A DNA stretch of 64,000 nt from NCBI GenBank assembly GCA_902780395.1, contig CACZFH010000001.1:13762-77761 (forward strand). Direction: 5' to 3'. The stretch is from an uncultured Erysipelotrichaceae bacterium (GTDB lineage: Bacteria; Bacillota_I; Bacilli_A; RF39; UBA660). The position numbers and the translations under genes are program-made. How positions within the stretch are numbered: the first letter of the stretch is position 1; the number at the start of each line of letters is the position of its first letter. Below are positions 24,301-40,184 of the stretch, piece by piece. The notes beneath the pieces are model-generated. The model saw only the letters and a program-made list of their open reading frames with translations, ran no database searches and had not been told where the DNA came from.

Positions 24301-24627
24301 TTACTTTTCTTTTTCTTTTAGTTTTACAGCAGTACCATAAACTATCATCTCAGCAGCACCTTGCATAACAGCCGAAGATCCATAACGAACCCCAACAATA
24401 GCATCAGCACCTAATTTCTCAGCTTCATCAACCATCCTCTTAGTAGCAATTTGTCTAGCCTCTCGAATCATTTCAGTATAACCAACAATTTCACCACCAA
24501 CTAAAGTCTTCATCCCAGCCATAAAATCTCTACCAATATTTTTAGATTGAACAATTTCTCCTTTAACAATTCCTAAACTCTCTTCAATTTTCTTCCCCTG
24601 TATTTCTTCAGTACTAACAATTAACAT
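24301..24627 (-). CDS. YbjQ/UPF0145 family protein
   Basis: Full-length similarity to the YbjQ (DUF74) pattern: IVSTEEIQGKKI...GADAIVGVRY. Confidence 0.8.
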   Translation of the reverse strand: MLIVSTEEIQGKKIEESLGIVKGEIVQSKNIGRDFMAGMKTLVGGEIVGYTEMIREARQIATKRMVDEAEKLGADAIVGVRYGSSAVMQGAAEMIVYGTAVKLKEKEK

Positions 24628-24635
24628 AAATCCTC

Positions 24636-24872
24636 CTAATACTTCTTAGCCTTTTCTTCTTCACCATTATGAATTTCATTAACCCTAGAATATAAAGCAT
24701 AAATAATGCCTATAAATGGAACACCAAAAATAAACAATAAAAAGATAAATACACCTGTTGGCATCTTATCAACTTCAGTCAATTGAGTATATACAAGCAA
24801 TGAAATAAGCATTGCCAAATAAACAATGAAAACAATACTAGATAAAATTGCTCCCAACAATTTCTTATTCAT
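24636..24872 (-). CDS. small membrane protein (2 TM)
   Basis: 78 aa with two hydrophobic helices; lies between the superoxide reductase and YbjQ genes. Confidence 0.4.
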   Translation of the reverse strand: MNKKLLGAILSSIVFIVYLAMLISLLVYTQLTEVDKMPTGVFIFLLFIFGVPFIGIIYALYSRVNEIHNGEEEKAKKY

Positions 24873-24873
24873 A

Positions 24874-25212
24874 TTATAAATCCTCTGATACCCATAAACT
24901 ATGTTTATTACAGTAACTATATGCTTTCATTCCACTACGATATTCAACAATCATAGAAGGGACATCACCTGGAGCAAAATGCTTAATAATTTGCTCATTA
25001 CCATAATCTACCAATAACCATTCTATATAATGATCTTCTTCCATTACATGATTAACAAATACTTTTACATTTTTATCCATCATTTCAAATTGGGGAACAT
25101 GCTTTTCAAAAGAAGCATCTACATCGTTAGCTTTAATAACCTTATCACTAACATCTTCAACTTCTTTTAAAACTATCATAATATTTCCACTCTTACATTT
25201 TATAACTTTCAT
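24874..25212 (-). CDS. superoxide reductase (neelaredoxin/desulfoferrodoxin-type, single domain)
   Basis: EKHVP motif, HVMEEDHYIEW His ligands and CNKHSLW Cys/His ligands of the SOR centre II. Confidence 0.8.
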   Translation of the reverse strand: MKVIKCKSGNIMIVLKEVEDVSDKVIKANDVDASFEKHVPQFEMMDKNVKVFVNHVMEEDHYIEWLLVDYGNEQIIKHFAPGDVPSMIVEYRSGMKAYSYCNKHSLWVSEDL

Positions 25213-25556
25213 ATCATTTCACTCCATTCTTTTTCTGAAAAACCAACTAAAACACTATCCTCTAATACTAATATTGGTCGCTTGATTAACATTCCATCAC
25301 TAGCTAACAAATTAATCATCTCTTCTTCTGTTAATCCCAGCAACTTTTCCTTCAAATTAAATTCCCGATACTTCTTACCACTTGTATTAAAAAACTTCTT
25401 AATATCTTTCCCACTAGAAGAAATATATTTATTTAAATCTTCTTTAGTAGGAATATCAATAGTTATATCTTTCAGCTTATAAACACAATGATGATCATCC
25501 AAGAATTTCTTTGCCTTTTGACAAGTAGAACATTTTGGATACCATATTAATACCAT
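25209..25556 (-). CDS. Spx/ArsC-family thioredoxin-fold redox regulator
   Basis: WYPKCSTCQKAKKFL CxxC N-terminus and LIKRPILVLEDSVLVGFSEKEW C-terminus resemble Spx/MgsR. Probable start at 25556 (AGGTGA RBS); the ORF-track start at 25577 is an extension. Overlaps the SOR start by 4 nt. Confidence 0.7.
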   Translation of the reverse strand: MVLIWYPKCSTCQKAKKFLDDHHCVYKLKDITIDIPTKEDLNKYISSSGKDIKKFFNTSGKKYREFNLKEKLLGLTEEEMINLLASDGMLIKRPILVLEDSVLVGFSEKEWSEMI

Positions 25557-25619
25557 ACCATCACCTACTTCTATCATAACAAATTACAATAAAGAAAAAA
25601 AGATATTTTCATATCTTTT

Positions 25620-28600
25620 TTATAAAGTCTTATGACTATCATCAGCAATTTCATCAAGACAGCCTTTAATCATATCTTCTATGTCCTCATCAGATAACTC
25701 AGAAGAATCAGAATCAATAGTTTCTTCATATTCGATAGGCAATGATCCCATAGAAATCCTTTTACCATGTTTTCCAAAGAATGCTTCCAACTGAATAAAA
25801 CTATCTACAATGGCTTTATCATCATGAGCCTCAATAGAATCTGACAAAGCTTGCTCTAAGATAGCAAGTTCAGCCAACTCATCATCATTTAGTCGATAAA
25901 CACCTACATCACGAATTAAAGCTCTTCCTTCCATTAAATAACGTTGACTTAATCCATAAGCATCATTATCCAAATAATAACTTACTTCTTCCCTTAATTT
26001 TTTAATCTCAAGAACTTGCATAGCAGCTTGCCTATAATAATCCTCAATTGATTCTTCATATTTACTTTCATTTTCTTTGTCTACTGATTTTTTTTGTTCA
26101 TTTTCACTAATTAATGACTTTAAAGAACCAATTTCTTGATAGCTATCTTTAATACTAGCAAAATAGTCTTCAATCATATCATATTGATATTCACGAATGA
26201 AATCTACTATTAAGGGTTCAATAACACTCTTATTTTCTTCATTAGAAGAATAATCATGATACTCAGCAAACAAAGTTTCTAACTCACTCTCTGACAAATC
26301 TTGAAGACGATATGTTACTTCTTCTAATCTTTCTTTAGAGTCTAAAGATATAATTATATGAGCACTAATCTTTTTCAAGAATGCCGCACTTGCTGTTATG
26401 ATAGCAGGTAAAGCTCCTACAATATTATATTCCCAATCATCATTCTTTAATTCATCAAAGAATAATTTAGTACAATTAACTCTTCCATTTTGAAAAGTCT
26501 TAACAGCCCCTTCTTGAATATTTTTTTCAAGATCTAAACCTTCAGATAATTTATCAATAATTTCATCAATAGATTCATAAACATCCTCATATTCTTCATG
26601 ACCTATACCACTATAAGGATCATCTGGAAGAATATCTTCACCACCAGAACCAAAAGGACCAAAACTATAAGGAGCATCTGGAAGAATTTCTTCATCATCA
26701 GAATCAACAGCAGATGCTTCTCCAGTAGATTCTTCTCTATTTAATGGTTCATCTGAAACAGCTTCCATATCAGGATCAACAGCAGATGTTTCTTCAGTAG
26801 ATTCTTCTCTATCTAATGATTCATCTGAAGCAGCTTCCAAATCAGAATCAACAGCAGATGCTTCTCCAGTAGATTCTTCTCTATCTAATGATTCATCTGA
26901 AACAGCTTCCAAATCAGGATCAACTACTGGTGTTTCAACAACTGGTTCTTCTATTTTATCTATTTGAACATCTCTTACTTCAACCCTATAAGGAGAATAA
27001 TCATTATTAGCATTTTTCATAATAGCCTTGGCATCTTCTTCACTAATTTCATAGCAAACAGCTCCGTTAATCAAGACTTCAGGTCCAACAGGTTTTTCTA
27101 AAGAAAAACGTTGAAATAAATGTTTTCTAACATAAGCGACATTATCATGTTCTGTATCATGATATATCACTATTCTCTCAACCAAATCGTCAGAATCCTT
27201 CTTAACTTCTTCTGGTAATACAGAAAATTTCTTTCCTAAATGAACTGTTTCATGAGAAACTTGAAAATGATTATCATCTTCTAATTTAGAAAGAATTTCC
27301 TCAACATCTGCCTTATCTGCTTGATAACACTTCTTCCCATTAATTTCTTTTTCTTCACTAATAGGAATTTTATGAAAACGATCAAATGTATCTTTTAATA
27401 AATACACCTCATCATTATCTTCATCATGATAAACTTCTACAGTAATTGCCTCTTCTGGAATACCTACTTGCACATCTTCCATATCTGCTGGTCCTTTATC
27501 TGGAGTATAATCAGGTGCAATCGAAGTTCCAACAATTTTAGCAGGTAAAGTTTCTATATTCTTTATAGCAACAACATAATTAGTTTCAGGAAGTCGTATT
27601 GGACGTGCTATTGTACTCATTGGAGGAATTCCTTCAGTAAAATATAGTTTTTGAATAATAGCTAATGGGTATTTACCATTATCTGAAGAAGCATCTTCTT
27701 GAACTGTCACATCATTCTCAGCAGCAGCATCTTCTTGAACTGCCTCATCATTCTCAGCAGCAGCATCTTCTTGAACTGCCACATCATTCTCAGCAGCAGC
27801 ATCTTCTTGAACTGCCACATCATTCTCAGCAGCAACATCTTCTTGAATTACTACCCTTTCTTCATCAGGAACAATTGCCTTTGCCAACTTTTCCTCATCT
27901 TCTGATATTACAGTATCTGAAGTACTACCTTGGCCAAGACTTTCATCTTTTTGTAAAAGAGTAGCGCCTCTTCTTTTTCCATTAATATCTCTAACAATAG
28001 AATTCAATTCAGCTAATACTTTTTCCCTCTCCTTTAAAGAACCTAGTCTAACAGCACTAATTTCTTCATCAGATAATAAAGTATCACCATCTAATTCAGC
28101 TTGTTCTTCCTCCACAATTTGTGTCATTTTTCCTTTTTCAACATCATATGTATGAGAAAGCTTCTTAATATCTTCTTCTAATGAATCCTTATCTTCAAGT
28201 TCACTATCTATTGGATTAACTACTTCATCAGCAACAGCACTATCTTCTTCAGGAATAACTTCACCTTCAGAAATAGCTGTTATTTTTTCCATTATTTGTT
28301 CTCTATCATGAGAATCTACAGCATTTTTCAATTGCTCTCTTAAGGCTTTTAACATTTCTAATTCTTTTAAAGCCTCATCTTGTTCTTGTTTTTTAGTTGG
28401 AGTCATATGCTTACGATATACAGTAAATTTAGTAGAAAGCGTTTCTGACTCTCCATAATCACTATCTGCTCCCTCATAGATAATCTCTAATTCTTCAGGA
28501 TTTTGAACACTAATGCCATCTTTTTTCATCATCTCAAATATTCTATTTCTTTGTTCCTCTATTGAAATAGGAAGCCCATCTAAAATATAAGTTCCTGAAT

Positions 28601-28676
28601 AAACCTCTTCCCGAGTATTATTCTTTACTATTCTATCTTCACTCATACTATACCTCCTATGCATTAGCTTCTGCAT
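25620..28676 (-). CDS. large acidic protein with tandem repeats and an internally duplicated domain; no signal peptide
   Basis: 1018 aa, strongly D/E-rich. 12-aa repeat (AAAENDVAVQED) x4.6, 24-aa repeat (DPDLEAVSDESLDREESTGEASAV) x3.3, and a duplicated ~60-aa domain (VYHDEDNDEVYLLKDTFDRF…INGKKCY / IYHDTEHDNVAYVRKHLFQRF…INGAVCY). Confidence 0.6.
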   Translation of the reverse strand: MQKLMHRRYSMSEDRIVKNNTREEVYSGTYILDGLPISIEEQRNRIFEMMKKDGISVQNPEELEIIYEGADSDYGESETLSTKFTVYRKHMTPTKKQEQDEALKELEMLKALREQLKNAVDSHDREQIMEKITAISEGEVIPEEDSAVADEVVNPIDSELEDKDSLEEDIKKLSHTYDVEKGKMTQIVEEEQAELDGDTLLSDEEISAVRLGSLKEREKVLAELNSIVRDINGKRRGATLLQKDESLGQGSTSDTVISEDEEKLAKAIVPDEERVVIQEDVAAENDVAVQEDAAAENDVAVQEDAAAENDEAVQEDAAAENDVTVQEDASSDNGKYPLAIIQKLYFTEGIPPMSTIARPIRLPETNYVVAIKNIETLPAKIVGTSIAPDYTPDKGPADMEDVQVGIPEEAITVEVYHDEDNDEVYLLKDTFDRFHKIPISEEKEINGKKCYQADKADVEEILSKLEDDNHFQVSHETVHLGKKFSVLPEEVKKDSDDLVERIVIYHDTEHDNVAYVRKHLFQRFSLEKPVGPEVLINGAVCYEISEEDAKAIMKNANNDYSPYRVEVRDVQIDKIEEPVVETPVVDPDLEAVSDESLDREESTGEASAVDSDLEAASDESLDREESTEETSAVDPDMEAVSDEPLNREESTGEASAVDSDDEEILPDAPYSFGPFGSGGEDILPDDPYSGIGHEEYEDVYESIDEIIDKLSEGLDLEKNIQEGAVKTFQNGRVNCTKLFFDELKNDDWEYNIVGALPAIITASAAFLKKISAHIIISLDSKERLEEVTYRLQDLSESELETLFAEYHDYSSNEENKSVIEPLIVDFIREYQYDMIEDYFASIKDSYQEIGSLKSLISENEQKKSVDKENESKYEESIEDYYRQAAMQVLEIKKLREEVSYYLDNDAYGLSQRYLMEGRALIRDVGVYRLNDDELAELAILEQALSDSIEAHDDKAIVDSFIQLEAFFGKHGKRISMGSLPIEYEETIDSDSSELSDEDIEDMIKGCLDEIADDSHKTL
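26698..26931. repeat. 72-nt coding tandem repeat, ~3.3 copies
   Basis: Unit gaatcaacagcagatgcttctccagtagattcttctctat… repeated at 26700, 26773 and 26845. Confidence 0.8.
27685..27850. repeat. 36-nt coding tandem repeat, ~4.6 copies
   Basis: Unit gcagcagcatcttcttgaactgccacatcattctca repeated head to tail. Confidence 0.8.
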
Positions 28677-28974
28677 CTAATTGTTGTAATACGTCATTAA
28701 CCATTGCTAGTTCTCTCTCATCAGTTATATTTTCTAACTCCAATTTAGGCTTTAATGGATCATAGCTTGATACATAAATATTCTTTCTCCCATTAGCTCC
28801 AACGCTATGATCTGTATACCCAATATAGCACTTCATTGTTTCCTCAGAATCAAACGTAAATAATACATCACACTCTATAGCTTTGCCATCTTTTTCAATC
28901 TGTACTTTCTCATTATCAATATTGAAATCCATTATACCCCTCCAGCACATTATTCTACTATACAAGTTTATCAT
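28657..28974 (-). CDS. DUF1292-like small acidic protein, translationally coupled to the downstream giant acidic protein gene
   Basis: Pattern IEKDGKAIECDVLFTFDSEETMKCYIGYTD typical of the DUF1292 family (assigned from memory). Probable start at the internal Met (MDFNIDNE). Overlaps the next gene by 20 nt. Confidence 0.45.
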   Translation of the reverse strand: MINLYSRIMCWRGIMDFNIDNEKVQIEKDGKAIECDVLFTFDSEETMKCYIGYTDHSVGANGRKNIYVSSYDPLKPKLELENITDERELAMVNDVLQQLDAEANA

Positions 28975-29031
28975 TCATCAAGTAAAAAGTCAATTTTTTG
29001 CAAAGAAAAAGAGACTTAAAATAAGTCCTTT

Positions 29032-29598
29032 TTAACTATCAATATGAATTGTGATTAAATCCGTATTTTTTAACTTCCCAGTCTTCTTAAAACGTACATA
29101 ATAAAACGCTTCATCTTCTTCTTTTGCAGAAAGAGTTTCATTTTCCAAAATAGTTTCTTTTTGACTCTTCATTAGGTTCTCTTTCTCATCGTTTTTCATA
29201 AGAGTAATAACCGAATCTGTTGGGTTTTGAATAGTAATTTTATAAGAAATATCTTCTTCACTTACAATATCTTTCATATAATTAACTACTTTAAATGTAT
29301 ATTTATTTGCTTTTTTTAAATCTACTGCACTAATACTAAATTCAAAATCAGCATCTGCTTTATAAATAGGAATTACAATATTAGCCTTATTTTCACCTAT
29401 TTCATTTTTTCTTTTTTGATGTACTAATATCATTAAAAATATAACTATAATTAACAATATAATAAAGACAATACTCAAAAAAAGAGTTGAAGAAAAGAAT
29501 TCTTTTAGTCTATCCTTCCAAGTTTTCTCTTTTTGTTTTCCTTTTTTCTTCTTTTTCTTCTCTTTTTTTTCTTTCATCTTAGTAAACCTCACCATCAT
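29032..29598 (-). CDS. N-terminally membrane-anchored protein, paralog family copy 2 (Lys-rich cytoplasmic tail)
   Basis: TM helix LFLSIVFIILLIIVIFLMILV; motif ISYKITIQNPTDSVITL shared with copies 1 and 3. Confidence 0.55.
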   Translation of the reverse strand: MMVRFTKMKEKKEKKKKKKGKQKEKTWKDRLKEFFSSTLFLSIVFIILLIIVIFLMILVHQKRKNEIGENKANIVIPIYKADADFEFSISAVDLKKANKYTFKVVNYMKDIVSEEDISYKITIQNPTDSVITLMKNDEKENLMKSQKETILENETLSAKEEDEAFYYVRFKKTGKLKNTDLITIHIDS

Positions 29599-30031
29599 AG
29601 TTTTCCAATACTTCTCGACAACTTGCTTTAGATACTTCTTCTGTTTCTAAAATAGAAGTTTCTCCTTGAAAATACCGATAAGCTGAATCATCCTTAAATC
29701 CTCTTTCTTTAGCATCTTCCCTAGTAGCACCATAATAAACTTTTCCAATATGAGCCATTATCATAGCACCTATACACATAGGACAAGGTTCACAACTACT
29801 ATATAAAACATAATCACTTAAATCATGAGTATCTAGTATTCGACAAGCTTCTCTAATAGCCATAATCTCTGCGTGAGCAGTAACATCTTGAGTACTTAAA
29901 ACCATATTATGGGCTTTACAAATAATATTTCCATTCTTATCTGTGATAACCGCTCCAAAAGGTCCACCATCTTTTCCTTTAACTCCTAAAGAAGCTTCCA
30001 AAGCTGCTACTTCCAATAATGCATCATTCAT
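29579..30031 (-). CDS. guanine/nucleoside deaminase (CDA fold, GuaD/TadA-like)
   Basis: GGPFGAVI, TAHAE and CEPCPMC zinc-binding motifs; length and pattern close to B. subtilis GuaD. Confidence 0.8.
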   Translation of the reverse strand: MNDALLEVAALEASLGVKGKDGGPFGAVITDKNGNIICKAHNMVLSTQDVTAHAEIMAIREACRILDTHDLSDYVLYSSCEPCPMCIGAMIMAHIGKVYYGATREDAKERGFKDDSAYRYFQGETSILETEEVSKASCREVLENYDGEVY

Positions 30032-30032
30032 A

Positions 30033-31403
30033 CTATTTTTCCATCCTTTCTTTTATAGCTTTATATTTATTTTGAAACATATCCTTCTGTTCTTTCGTTA
30101 ATTTAGAGGCAAGAATACTATCTCCTACTGACTCTTCAATTTGTGCCTTGCTATCTAATTTTTGAGTATAAGAAACAGAACCATTTAACTTCGTTATTTT
30201 ATTCTCTAAATAACTAAAAGATAATAATTGAGTATTTACATATCTTTTTTTCTTAACAACATCTTCATATTTAGAAGAATAAACCACCTCATACTTCTTA
30301 TCTTTTTCTTCAAAAGAATAATTCATGGCTATATTATTACCATCTTTATCAAAACGAAAATTACCTAAATCTTCTCCCTTAGAATTTTTAATTTTAACAT
30401 CTATAGAATTATCTCTCCATTTAAAATGAGCTGAATAATATACTTGATCATTTAAAACATAATAACCATCTCCAGAAGTATCATCTCCTTCATAGATATA
30501 TACTTCCTTCTCATCACCCATCATATGAATAACCTCATATTTAACAGGTGCATATAAAAATCTTGTTGTATAGATATTCAAAATATAATATTCATTACTA
30601 GATAGAATCCTTGAATCATCTTTTAATAAATAATTTTTATAATTAGGAAAAATATTTTTAATCAGAAAAGAAGCTTCTTCATCTTTTTCAAAATCTAAAA
30701 TAATAGAATTCCATACTTTTCTAATTAGTTTATTAGTAAATTGTATAGATATTTGATGAACTTTTTCCTCTTTACCATGAATATTAGTATTAACTTCATA
30801 AGTTTTAAAATCTTCCTCTAATAAACTATTTTGTATTGCTTTAAATATATACTCATTCAAATATTGAAAATTATCATGATGAGTTTTTCCTTCACGAATA
30901 GTTTCAAAGTAATGACATGAGCCATTATTAACATATTGATTCAAAACATCTTCAACATAATAATAACCTGTTTCGTTAGCAACATACTCTTTCCTATGAT
31001 ATAGCTTTTCATTTCCCAATTTTTGCTCAAAATCTAGTAAAAGCTGTCTAGCCTTTCCATCATGTTTCATAACTAATTGAGTATTCAAATTACTAAGATT
31101 TTTAATTATATTATACTTTCTTAAAGCATCTATATCTACCATACTCTGATTTTTATAATACTCACTATCTAAATCAAAATCAATGGAGCTTTCTAAACTA
31201 AATTGATCTCCTACAAATATGTTTTGATTAGGAAATAAATAATTCCAACTCTTATTTTGAATTCTTTCTAGTACTTCCCCCACAATATAGCTAGGTTTTG
31301 ATAGATGCCTAAAATAAAAGCCTATATAGATTAATAAAATAGCAAAAAGAAAAATAAAAACAGCTAATATAATAGAAAGTTTTTTTTCTGTCACTACTAT
31401 CAC
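30033..31403 (-). CDS. membrane-anchored hypothetical protein
   Basis: N-terminal TM helix plus ~420 aa extracytoplasmic region rich in Y/N/K; no recognisable motif. Confidence 0.45.
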   Translation of the reverse strand: MIVVTEKKLSIILAVFIFLFAILLIYIGFYFRHLSKPSYIVGEVLERIQNKSWNYLFPNQNIFVGDQFSLESSIDFDLDSEYYKNQSMVDIDALRKYNIIKNLSNLNTQLVMKHDGKARQLLLDFEQKLGNEKLYHRKEYVANETGYYYVEDVLNQYVNNGSCHYFETIREGKTHHDNFQYLNEYIFKAIQNSLLEEDFKTYEVNTNIHGKEEKVHQISIQFTNKLIRKVWNSIILDFEKDEEASFLIKNIFPNYKNYLLKDDSRILSSNEYYILNIYTTRFLYAPVKYEVIHMMGDEKEVYIYEGDDTSGDGYYVLNDQVYYSAHFKWRDNSIDVKIKNSKGEDLGNFRFDKDGNNIAMNYSFEEKDKKYEVVYSSKYEDVVKKKRYVNTQLLSFSYLENKITKLNGSVSYTQKLDSKAQIEESVGDSILASKLTKEQKDMFQNKYKAIKERMEK

Positions 31404-31476
31404 ACCCTAACATAATTATTATAAAAAAAAAGAAACTATTTTGTCAATAAAACGAAAAAAAAGAACAGAACGTTCT

Positions 31477-32004
31477 TTATCTTGATTTTGTTAATAATCC
31501 TAACTTTAAAGGAACTATTTTCTTAACATTAGAAGTACTACTAGGATTATAATAAACAACTACTTTAAATTCGATATCATCACCAGCCGGAATTATTTTT
31601 CCTTTAACATCTGAAAGACTAATTGATACTGGCGATATTAACTTTTTATAATAATCCGTTTGATAATTTGGACTTGCCATAATATCTACAATTTCCGCTG
31701 GCATTGTTCCACTATTACGAATTGTCACTATATAACTTAACTCATCATAACTAGAATTTAATACAAAACTCATATCTAATTCTAAACCATTACTAGTAAT
31801 GTCAATATTTCCATAAGGTTCAATATCACTACCTCGAACAGATGATGATTTACGAACATCACTAAAAGAAACATTATAAGAAGATAACTTTTCTGTTTCT
31901 GCTTTATAGCGTACTGATAATACAATAAAACCAAAACCCATACAGATAATGGTTACACATAGCATGATTATCACACTATTTCGTATATGAATCATCTTTT
32001 TCAT
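31477..32004 (-). CDS. N-terminally membrane-anchored protein, paralog family copy 3
   Basis: TM helix VIIMLCVTIICMGFGFIVL; motif LSYIVTIRNSGTMPAEIV (Y-x-x-T-I-x-N-x-G) shared with copies 1 and 2. Confidence 0.55.
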   Translation of the reverse strand: MKKMIHIRNSVIIMLCVTIICMGFGFIVLSVRYKAETEKLSSYNVSFSDVRKSSSVRGSDIEPYGNIDITSNGLELDMSFVLNSSYDELSYIVTIRNSGTMPAEIVDIMASPNYQTDYYKKLISPVSISLSDVKGKIIPAGDDIEFKVVVYYNPSSTSNVKKIVPLKLGLLTKSR

Positions 32005-38637: not shown

Positions 38638-39426
38638 TCAATCGCCAAATTTTATAATTGTATCCGTCTTACAATATATTTTTGGCCTCTTATTACTATT
38701 ATTATAACCTACTATTTTACAAAAATTCTTATCAAGACCATATATATCAAAGTCCCCAACATAATAAGATTCCCGCTTCATACAGCTATAATATAGTTCC
38801 CCTTTACGAACGCTAAGTCCTTCAATTCCAATATCATAAAGATCATTTTGTGTAATATCATCAGTTAACCAATAACCTTGATTTATGAGTTTATAGACTT
38901 CGGGATCAATAGAACCGTGGTTTCTATAATGCCTCATACTTTCAAAATCAATACAATCAAATATTACCACGTCATCCCACTTATCTAATAAAGTAGCATT
39001 TAAAGTTTTAACTGATCCAGTAGAATAATCAAGTACAAACTCAACAAATGTATATGTAGGATAGTTCTTCTTACAAAATACAATATAATTCTTATCCGAA
39101 GAACAAATAATATCATAATTAGTTCCTAAATCATTAATATTAATACCAATAAGAGACAATGCACTTTCTATAAAGTGTACCCACTGAGCTTGTTGATTAA
39201 GTTTATTCTTTCTATTCAATACTGTATTATCTATTATTTTCATTCCATCTAAAACAATAATATCATCATCTACAGTATACTCATAAACATGTGAATCTCT
39301 AGGATGTTTAACGAGTAATCGACCTCTATATATTAACTCATTCAAGAATTTTATTTCATTATCTAATGACCCACCTATTTTCCAAATATTAGAAAAATCA
39401 TCTTTTTTGGATTGATAATCAGTCAT
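38638..39426 (-). CDS. hypothetical protein
   Basis: Intact 262-aa ORF, no signal peptide, no recognisable motif; 8-nt gap to the M23 peptidase gene. Confidence 0.45.
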   Translation of the reverse strand: MTDYQSKKDDFSNIWKIGGSLDNEIKFLNELIYRGRLLVKHPRDSHVYEYTVDDDIIVLDGMKIIDNTVLNRKNKLNQQAQWVHFIESALSLIGININDLGTNYDIICSSDKNYIVFCKKNYPTYTFVEFVLDYSTGSVKTLNATLLDKWDDVVIFDCIDFESMRHYRNHGSIDPEVYKLINQGYWLTDDITQNDLYDIGIEGLSVRKGELYYSCMKRESYYVGDFDIYGLDKNFCKIVGYNNSNKRPKIYCKTDTIIKFGD

Positions 39427-39434
39427 AATAACAC

Positions 39435-40184
39435 CTAACTTCTAGAAGTCCAACTACCAGGAACAACTATATGACTACCTAATCCTAAGTAACCATCATT
39501 AATTCTTTTATTTCCATATACAAAGAAACTATTTAAGTTAGAGCAATTAGCATCATTTGAATCAAATAATGCACAATCAAGAACCGCTAAATGTAAATGT
39601 ACTCCCGTAGAATAACCAGTAGTTCCCATCCAACCAATAGGATCTAAATAAGAAACTGACTTACCTACATACAAACCTTCTTTATAACGTGATAAATGAA
39701 CATATTGAGATGTATACTTATGACCATTAATATCATGAAGAATTGTTACAATTAATGCCCCATACATATCTGTATAAATACCACTAATTACTCCATCATA
39801 GACAGGATATATTACCTCTCCACTACCTCTAGGACTCGTAATATCTAAAGCCATATGACCATAATGAGGATTTTGACTAATTATTCCCATTTCCGTAGGC
39901 AAATGCCAAGTAGGAGAAGGTAATACTGGTTTTTCTTCCTTCTCATTAGCAATTTCTTTAAAATGATAAGAAACATCATCTTTTCTATATAAGAATGATA
40001 ATGATGTACTAACACCTTGTAATTTTTCTGAAACATCTACAGCAGAAATATTTTTTATATTAATAGATTCATATGAAGTATTAATATCTAAACTTGAATA
40101 GTAATAATAAATTCTAGCTTCTAATGCAAATAAGAATAGAAAGATAGCAATAATCATTACAAATCTATCTCTTCGAATACTCAT
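39435..40184 (-). CDS. M23 family metallopeptidase (LytM-like) with N-terminal TM anchor
   Basis: HxxxD…HLHL pattern (MALDITSPRG … GVHLHLAV) and N-terminal hydrophobic helix. Confidence 0.8.
   Translation of the reverse strand: MSIRRDRFVMIIAIFLFLFALEARIYYYYSSLDINTSYESINIKNISAVDVSEKLQGVSTSLSFLYRKDDVSYHFKEIANEKEEKPVLPSPTWHLPTEMGIISQNPHYGHMALDITSPRGSGEVIYPVYDGVISGIYTDMYGALIVTILHDINGHKYTSQYVHLSRYKEGLYVGKSVSYLDPIGWMGTTGYSTGVHLHLAVLDCALFDSNDANCSNLNSFFVYGNKRINDGYLGLGSHIVVPGSWTSRS

Follow-up and report, generated by a model that had tools for sequence, protein, structure and literature searches.

A 64,000-nucleotide stretch of a contig from an uncultured Erysipelotrichaceae bacterium (GenBank CACZFH010000001.1, positions 13,762 to 77,761 of the forward strand; hereafter the window) carries on its minus strand a gene for a 91-residue protein of the DUF1292 family, followed directly by a gene for an acidic repeat protein of 1008 residues. 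The acidic repeat protein belongs to no described family. Scans against Pfam, NCBIfam, PHROGs and PADLOC assigned it to none, and the Pfam scan returned just sub-threshold matches to PspAA (19.8 bits against a cutoff of 27) and Csa1 (12.4 bits); five to ten of its relatives also drew no family in scans of curated libraries. The possibility of a known housekeeping family, left open in an earlier note made from the sequence of this DNA alone, thus found no support in the library scans. Here we describe the two genes, the domains and tandem repeats of the large protein, its relatives and their gene neighbourhoods, and then weigh what the pair may do.

The two genes and their pairing

The longest open reading frame (ORF) at the large gene, 25620..28676 on the minus strand, encodes 1018 residues, which is the length that the earlier note had given. 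Its ATG at 28676 lacks a ribosome-binding site comparable with that of a second in-frame ATG at 28646 (residue 11 of the longer frame), where GGAGG is followed by a 6-nt spacer and the junction reads directly as ...GCA TAG GAGG TATAGT ATG AGT GAA.... The corresponding MSEDR or MSEVK is where homologues of the large protein begin; on related contigs, gene callers have the large gene start 10 nt past the DUF1292 stop codon (28659-28657). Given this ribosome-binding site, the homologue starts and the gene-caller starts, ATG 28646 is likely the true start, and the protein is taken as 1008 rather than 1018 residues long; residue numbers below refer to the 1008-residue form. With the corrected start, the 20-nt overlap with the DUF1292 gene that had been described disappears as an artefact of the longest-ORF starts, and the large-gene ATG lies 10 nt downstream of the DUF1292 stop codon on the same strand. 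For the DUF1292 gene, the longest ORF extends to 28974 (105 aa), gene callers give 91 aa on the related contigs L009 and L010, and the start is most likely at 28932. The DUF1292-like character ascribed to this upstream ORF holds: it matches Pfam PF06949 (E 3e-6) over profile positions 2-73 of 75, scoring 28.4 bits where the cutoff is 24, and the NCBIfam PRK13678 models match it only under their cutoffs.

The large ORF is a real gene; a chance ORF was considered and rejected. Compared with L010, its ratio of non-synonymous to synonymous substitution rates (dN/dS) comes to 0.52 over the whole gene, with 0.22-0.49 in the folded domains and 0.65-0.75 in the linkers; the first two values indicate purifying selection. 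The corresponding values are 0.01-0.12 for the neighbours in the division cluster, with the DUF1292 gene at 0.07, and 0.14 and 0.25 for two downstream genes. The neighbouring proteins of L010 are 83-99% identical to those of the window, the large protein just 67%. Its composition is as acidic as had been noted, with 25% aspartate and glutamate against 10% lysine and arginine; proline makes up 3.3% of residues. The protein opens with the hydrophilic MSEDRIVKNNTREE and ends in an acidic C-terminus. No convincing transmembrane (TM) segment was found in the protein, the best 19-residue window having a Kyte-Doolittle (KD) hydropathy of 1.59 and including lysines, so that the absence of signal peptide and TM segment reported earlier holds for the window protein. 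A C-terminal sorting signal is likewise absent, and the single LPxT-like string, LPETN (aa 352), is internal.

The pairing of the two genes extends to the relatives. A DUF1292 gene lies immediately upstream of the large gene in 33 of 33 loci with informative 5' DNA (L001-L010, L011, L014-L019 and 16 metagenome loci with the 5' end on the contig). The partner proteins form a specialised, highly conserved DUF1292 subfamily (GYTDHS...NGRKNIYVSS[YF]DP); those of distant family members are 54-58% identical to the window's, where the large proteins share ~20-25% identity. The odd case is L041, where a YchF-like GTPase fragment (~130 aa, N-terminal) is joined in frame to a family member (L041 7792-10419) and the DUF1292 gene is missing. 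Part of the upstream DNA there looks GC-richer, and the junction is probably that of a chimeric contig; a genuine fusion is also possible.

Upstream of the DUF1292 gene, a promoter-like site with an extended TG is suggestive only, since such sites are no commoner in the region than in shuffled sequence. AT-rich hairpins with U tracts flank the pair on both sides; the downstream one, which overlaps the stop codon of the large gene, was not called as a terminator by the consensus scan. Together, the promoter-like site and the flanking hairpins would fit a bicistronic unit, with no proof of one.

Domain architecture and tandem repeats

Profiles built and iterated on homologues delimit five elements in the large protein: an N-terminal domain (Nt), a conserved mid motif, two copies of a repeat domain (R1 and R2) and a C-terminal domain (Ct) that defines the family (Table 1). 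Relatives have 1-5 copies of Nt and 0-9 copies of R. The internal duplication reported earlier is therefore real, although each copy spans ~74 residues and not the ~60 first proposed. In profile-profile comparison with hhalign, DUF1292, Nt and R are unrelated to one another (probability at most 3%).

An AlphaFold2 model of R2 (pLDDT 84) shows a small alpha/beta domain with the order b-b-a-b-b-a-b; that of Ct (pLDDT 78) contains only helices and includes a long helical hairpin. In searches for known folds, the R2 model has no significant match in PDB (searched with Foldseek) or BFVD, with a faint, non-significant resemblance of the R domain to MutS domain I and HARP-like folds, and the Ct model has no match in PDB, the best E value being 0.4. 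Sequence searches of PDB with profiles of the whole protein, R and Ct returned only designed helical repeats or noise, and the DUF1292 partner has no relative there. Ct (~275 aa) contains the motif YN[IV]V..P...K and the most conserved hydrophobic helix, YNIVGALPAIITASAAFLKKIS. This helix is modelled with low confidence, as would be expected where a surface makes contact with a partner or a membrane. Just before Ct stand two short acidic motifs that may be linear binding motifs, and which we take to resemble loosely the acidic/hydrophobic/proline pattern of FtsZ C-terminal peptides. Motifs of the form [DE][DE][IL][IL]P[DEA] occur 2-5 times in the related proteins P0001-P0005 and are absent from P0006.

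Table 1. Positions of the DUF1292 gene, the large gene and their features in the window
Feature	Position	Strand	Basis and remarks
Promoter-like site TTGACT-17-TAAACT, extended TG, upstream of DUF1292	28965..28993	-	Consensus scan, 9/12 matches
DUF1292 partner gene	28657..28932	-	91 aa, coordinates include stop; GGAGGGG precedes ATG 28932
GGAGG ribosome-binding site of large gene	28653..28657	-	Shares last base of DUF1292 stop; 6 nt before ATG 28646
Large acidic protein gene, start as corrected (likely)	25620..28646	-	1008 aa plus stop
N-terminal domain Nt, aa 13-78	28413..28610	-	Family profile E 1.5e-34; one copy
Acidic linker, assumed helical, aa 86-268	27843..28391	-	Composition windows; dN/dS 0.68 and 41 gapped columns against L010
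Tandem array 1, 36-nt units encoding ED[VA]AAEND[VE][AT]VQ	27690..27847	-	Tandem Repeats Finder (TRF) x4.4, 96% matches
Conserved mid motif with LPAKIVG...PDYTPDKGPADM, aa 325-392	27471..27674	-	Family profile E 9.4e-32
Repeat domain R1, aa 402-472	27231..27443	-	Family repeat profile E 1.8e-25, alignment
Repeat domain R2, aa 490-564	26955..27179	-	Family repeat profile E 3.1e-33
Tandem array 2, 72-nt units encoding DPDLEAVSDESLDREESTGEASAV	26697..26924	-	TRF x3.2, 92% matches
Two short acidic motifs EEILPDAPY and EDILPDDPY, aa 652-678	26613..26693	-	Regular-expression search; just before Ct
C-terminal all-helical domain Ct, aa 686-959, family-defining	25770..26591	-	E 6.4e-119
Acidic C-terminal tail, aa 960-1008	25623..25769	-	In place of the relatives' ~320-aa segment with probable membrane hairpin
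Terminator-like AT-rich hairpin then U tract, overlapping large-gene stop codon	25590..25621	-	RNA fold -12.3 kcal/mol, z -2.76

Both tandem arrays lie between domains. Array 1 comprises four full 12-aa units (27699-27842), in frame and identical at 34-35 of 36 nt; array 2 comprises three full 24-aa units (26706-26921), also in frame and identical at 65-69 of 72 nt, with all between-unit differences non-synonymous. The 36-nt and 72-nt repeats and their coding register are thus as the earlier note had them, TRF giving copy numbers of 4.4 and 3.2 where it had 4.6 and 3.3. Two ORFs on the opposite strand, 27665-27964 (+; 99 aa) and 27699-27905 (+; 68 aa), carry repeated HHSQQQHLLELP-like peptides; they were rejected as genes and are shadows of array 1.

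Copy number, compared among related contigs as the note had proposed, differs in L009 and in other lineages. The DNA of L009 is 100.0% identical to the window over 13 flanking genes (~12 kb), and the sole difference is one 36-nt unit fewer. Both of these near-identical assemblies are short-read; the differences between lineages cannot be an assembly artefact. Across the window and its relatives, array 1 is present in 4, 3, 1, 1, 0 and 0 copies, and the unit of array 2 or its diverged homologue in 3, 3, 1, 3-4 and 0 copies, the homologue being DSDEEEILPDESLRSEEPVVEIPVV, present three to four times in P0002-P0004. With 0, 1, 3 or 4 copies per array among the relatives, the locus is length-variable, as had been foreseen. 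Within a genome the units agree at 17-24 of 24-25 residues, between lineages at only 10-12, which amounts to concerted evolution; together with the near identity of the units, this agrees with the recent expansion or homogenisation that had been proposed for them.

Relatives and gene neighbourhood

Word-indexed searches found only 12 relatives of the large protein, all unnamed, and queries with the domain alignments returned only fragments. An exhaustive profile search with the region from the mid motif to Ct retrieved 319 clusters (50% identity) at E<=1e-3, 156 of them at E<=1e-30; look-ups of the clusters gave no source-given protein names. The common core of the family is Ct plus a C-terminal extension of ~320 aa. 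In the relatives this extension contains two conserved, uncharged stretches rich in alanine, serine and threonine (18-23 aa; median KD ~1.5 and ~1.2), separated in most members by a loop of ~205-209 aa. Lysine and arginine make up 6% of the loop against 15-18% of its flanks, which by the positive-inside rule suggests an in-out-in membrane hairpin; nearly all relatives thus carry a probable C-terminal membrane hairpin.

The window protein has none. A profile of the extension found no match in the window protein or elsewhere in the window, and neither did tblastn with the extension; no paralogue of any domain of the large protein was found in the window. The window protein and P0001-P0006, here called the window clade, are the only group of complete proteins that lack the extension, and its absence from P0002 and P0006 as well makes this a clade-specific loss. 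In the Ct motif HG[LI]EEDFKA...Y.G.RFAK, which other members preserve, the clade has diverged as well. An intact reading frame of ~870-1008 aa has been kept in at least three lineages, at 45-99% identity.

In the window, the minus-strand order is thrS, mraZ, rsmH, ftsL, pbp2B, three genes for proteins with an N-terminal TM segment (tm175, tm456 and tm188, of 175, 456 and 188 aa) together with a CMP/dCMP-type deaminase gene, then the DUF1292 gene and the large gene. This block, from mraZ to the large gene, recurs on L001-L010 (eight relatives among metagenome-assembled genomes, L009 and L010), on the more distant L014, L015, L017, L018 and L019, and in most of 27 metagenome loci. On L015 a second penicillin-binding protein (PBP) gene and mraY follow the pair, which thus stands within the cluster, and on L019 a second PBP gene follows it. 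A different setting is seen on L016, where the pair, with a member only ~20-25% identical, comes after ftsX and a PcsB-like M23 hydrolase gene. The pair lies between a glutamine amidotransferase (GATase) gene and infC on L011, and on L039 it occurs without the pbp2B block.

The segment between pbp2B and the DUF1292 gene (window 29032-32004, minus strand) is itself conserved, with equivalents on L001-L010, L014, L015, L017-L019 and many of L020-L046; many relatives have an extra ~290-aa gene there that is absent from the window. Its membrane proteins matched no Pfam family, and they may be partners of the large protein or unrecognised division proteins. On L001, a gene of ~718 aa with a prepilin-type N_methyl domain and Flg_new repeats is inserted between tm175 and tm456 (L001 2962-5118), and L004 and L007 have gaps of 3-4 kb at this position.

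Other features of these loci are recorded here. Downstream of the pair, the window encodes an ArsC/Spx-family CxxC protein, a desulfoferrodoxin-type superoxide reductase, a small membrane protein and YbjQ (24301-25577, minus strand). An ABC transporter comes next, and relatives share part of this gene order. A few kb beyond thrS, at 38638-40184 (minus strand), a gene for a Peptidase_M23 protein (249 aa) adjoins one for a 262-aa protein without a family; FtsX was not found among the ORFs examined beside it. The family member on L011 (P0136; L011 9001-11400) is a distant one without Nt and R domains, and its N-terminal ~60 aa look by eye like a J domain (LLGIDPNYASESELKSARNLLAHQFDYDNPEN...INEAYQLL) without the HPD motif. 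On the same contig (12353-13974), precomputed Pfam matches give ribosomal proteins L20 and S2 additional Rho_N, SAP or HeH-like domains, which are unusual fusions.

A possible scaffold for division or cell-wall synthesis

With a probability of about 0.45, we read the pair as a scaffold associated with division or the cell wall, partnered by DUF1292 and built with disordered acidic spacers; the reading draws on sequence and gene context. The DUF1292 gene and the large gene would act as a two-gene unit. The large protein would be a modular cytoplasmic scaffold of Nt, mid motif, two R domains and helical Ct, in which the acidic stretches between the folded parts are probably disordered. Its folded modules may bind partners, while the acidic repeats would serve as weakly constrained spacers whose in-frame units are gained and lost by slippage or unequal recombination and homogenised within each genome. 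That such change is tolerated may mean that the length and charge of the spacers matter more than their sequence. The DUF1292 protein would bind Ct as an obligate partner: the invariant pairing, the tight spacing with a ribosome-binding site and the very different evolutionary rates of the two proteins make a DUF1292-Ct complex the most economical reading, and the 10-nt gap with its embedded ribosome-binding site would favour coupled, stoichiometric synthesis. The complex may then work with the neighbouring division and peptidoglycan-synthesis machinery, namely FtsL, PBP2B and the co-conserved membrane proteins. The association of the pair with two different sets of division or cell-wall genes, and the apparent membrane anchoring of most relatives, suggest a role at the divisome or in peptidoglycan synthesis. 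In most relatives the scaffold would be tethered by its own C-terminal hairpin; with this hairpin lost, the scaffold of the window clade would be soluble or recruited through partner proteins.

Several points weigh against this reading. Its functional part stands on gene neighbourhood alone, the sampled loci are skewed towards the relatives of the window, and the contexts on L011 and L039 make linkage to the division and cell wall (dcw) cluster frequent, not universal. The hairpin of the relatives comes from hydropathy and charge bias only, with borderline KD values. In the window clade, the loss of the anchor and the divergence of the Ct motif may mean that function has shifted or is decaying, and the single-unit difference on L009 could be a short-read assembly artefact.

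The alternative that survives best, though in our view rather unlikely, gives the pair a cytoplasmic role apart from division (chaperone-like, related to nucleic acids, or as a polyanionic buffer or mimic) and regards its position after pbp2B as inherited synteny. The other neighbourhoods on L011 and L039 speak for it, as do the apparent promoter-like site and flanking hairpins of the pair's own, and the faint likeness of R to MutS domain I and HARP-like folds. In addition, B. subtilis yrzB, a DUF1292 gene, is listed in a published gene table only as 'putative anti-sigma factor', and literature searches for DUF1292, UPF0473 and YrzB returned no functional study. Inherited synteny does not readily explain why the pair occurs in two different contexts, after pbp2B and, with a member only ~20-25% identical, after ftsX-pcsB, why on L015 it stands between pbp2B and a second PBP gene with mraY, or why most relatives appear membrane-anchored.

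It is improbable that the gene of the window clade is a decaying remnant of a membrane-anchored ancestor, drifting and with repeat expansions as neutral filler. Such decay would account for the missing extension, which nearly all full-length relatives have, for the diverged Ct motif and for a dN/dS of 0.52 where the division-cluster neighbours reach no more than 0.12 and no neighbour exceeds 0.25. It fits poorly with a frame kept intact in at least three lineages, with the dN/dS of the folded domains, with the ribosome-binding site and tight spacing retained after DUF1292, and with the strong constraint on the DUF1292 partner. A surface-exposed or secreted protein, such as an adhesin or antigen with repeats that serve immune or phage evasion, is poorly supported and very improbable: variable, concerted coding repeats and fast evolution are shared with many surface proteins, but the window protein has a hydrophilic N-terminus, no TM segment or sorting signal, an acidic tail and an internal LPETN, its repeats lie between domains N-terminal to the relatives' putative hairpin, a region that the positive-inside rule puts in the cytoplasm, and no secretion-system gene is nearby in the window. 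Membership of a mobile element, prophage or defence system, suggested by the large size, the repeats, the rarity of the family and the tape-measure-like A/S/T-rich hydrophobic helices of the relatives, is effectively refuted by stable chromosomal synteny beside core genes over dozens of contigs. There are no integrase, capsid or tail genes nearby, and neither PHROGs nor PADLOC matched either member of the pair or the two relatives scanned.

Set beside known systems, the scaffold reading has partial precedents. The likeness to DUF1292/UPF0473 (B. subtilis YrzB) consists in the above-threshold Pfam match of the 91-aa protein. The canonical yrzB gene lies in an alaS-yrzL(ireB/reoM)-yrrK(ruvX)-yrzB-mltG region, which is also cell-wall-related. 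A deposited note for E. faecium likewise puts a DUF1292 gene beside ruvX. By contrast, the window pair has no ruvX/yrrK, yrzL or mltG nearby, its neighbours being tm188, the deaminase gene, tm456, tm175, pbp2B, ftsL, rsmH and mraZ, and its subfamily is specialised and always followed by a large Ct-domain protein. The division scaffolds EzrA, MapZ/LocZ and ZipA, of Firmicutes and E. coli, resemble the family in a big cytoplasmic region, helical or disordered spacers, membrane attachment (in the relatives) and a link to the divisome. The Pfam scan and the PDB searches linked the window protein to none of them, and where they are anchored by an N-terminal or single TM segment, the relatives would be anchored by a C-terminal hairpin with a loop of ~207 aa, and the window protein by none. 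Those proteins are division scaffolds, whereas a division role for the window family is inferred from gene context.

The cytoskeletal proteins of the Mycoplasma terminal organelle (HMW1, P200 and similar), from low-GC relatives among Bacilli and Mollicutes, are cytoplasmic proteins that are likewise large and very acidic, and they too combine small repeated modules with acidic regions of low complexity. They are marked by the EAGR box and an acidic proline-rich domain; the window protein has no EAGR-box match at E<=0.1, and its spacers abound in D, E, A, S and V, not in proline. As its host encodes PBP2B and FtsL, that host moreover has a cell wall. With the variable-number coding tandem repeats of other bacteria, the arrays share in-frame units of 36 and 72 nt, differences in copy number and concerted evolution; they differ in lying within the linkers of a protein without an export signal, where they alter spacer length and not expression or a surface epitope. 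A modular, division-associated scaffold with disordered spacers, which is what the protein appears to be, is of a familiar kind; new are the family, DUF1292 as its apparently obligate partner and, in the window clade, the lost anchor.

DUF1292/UPF0473 is widespread in Firmicutes, occurring as UPF0473/YrzB in Bacillus, Listeria, Staphylococcus and Enterococcus, and the pairing offers a testable hypothesis for both proteins, that of a small adaptor and a scaffold at the divisome or at cell-wall synthesis. The wider claim, that the pair is an unrecognised component of the divisome or of peptidoglycan synthesis in a broad group of uncultured gut Bacilli and that DUF1292 proteins in general are small adaptors of cell-envelope biogenesis, is possible yet doubtful. 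The locus is also a clear-cut natural case in which spacer repeats evolve rapidly and in concert within a probably cytoplasmic protein without an export signal. The pair suggests that the division apparatus has been elaborated in a lineage-specific way in abundant uncultured Bacilli of the gut and rumen and, if the scaffold reading is true, the window clade shows such a scaffold at work after the loss of its own membrane anchor.

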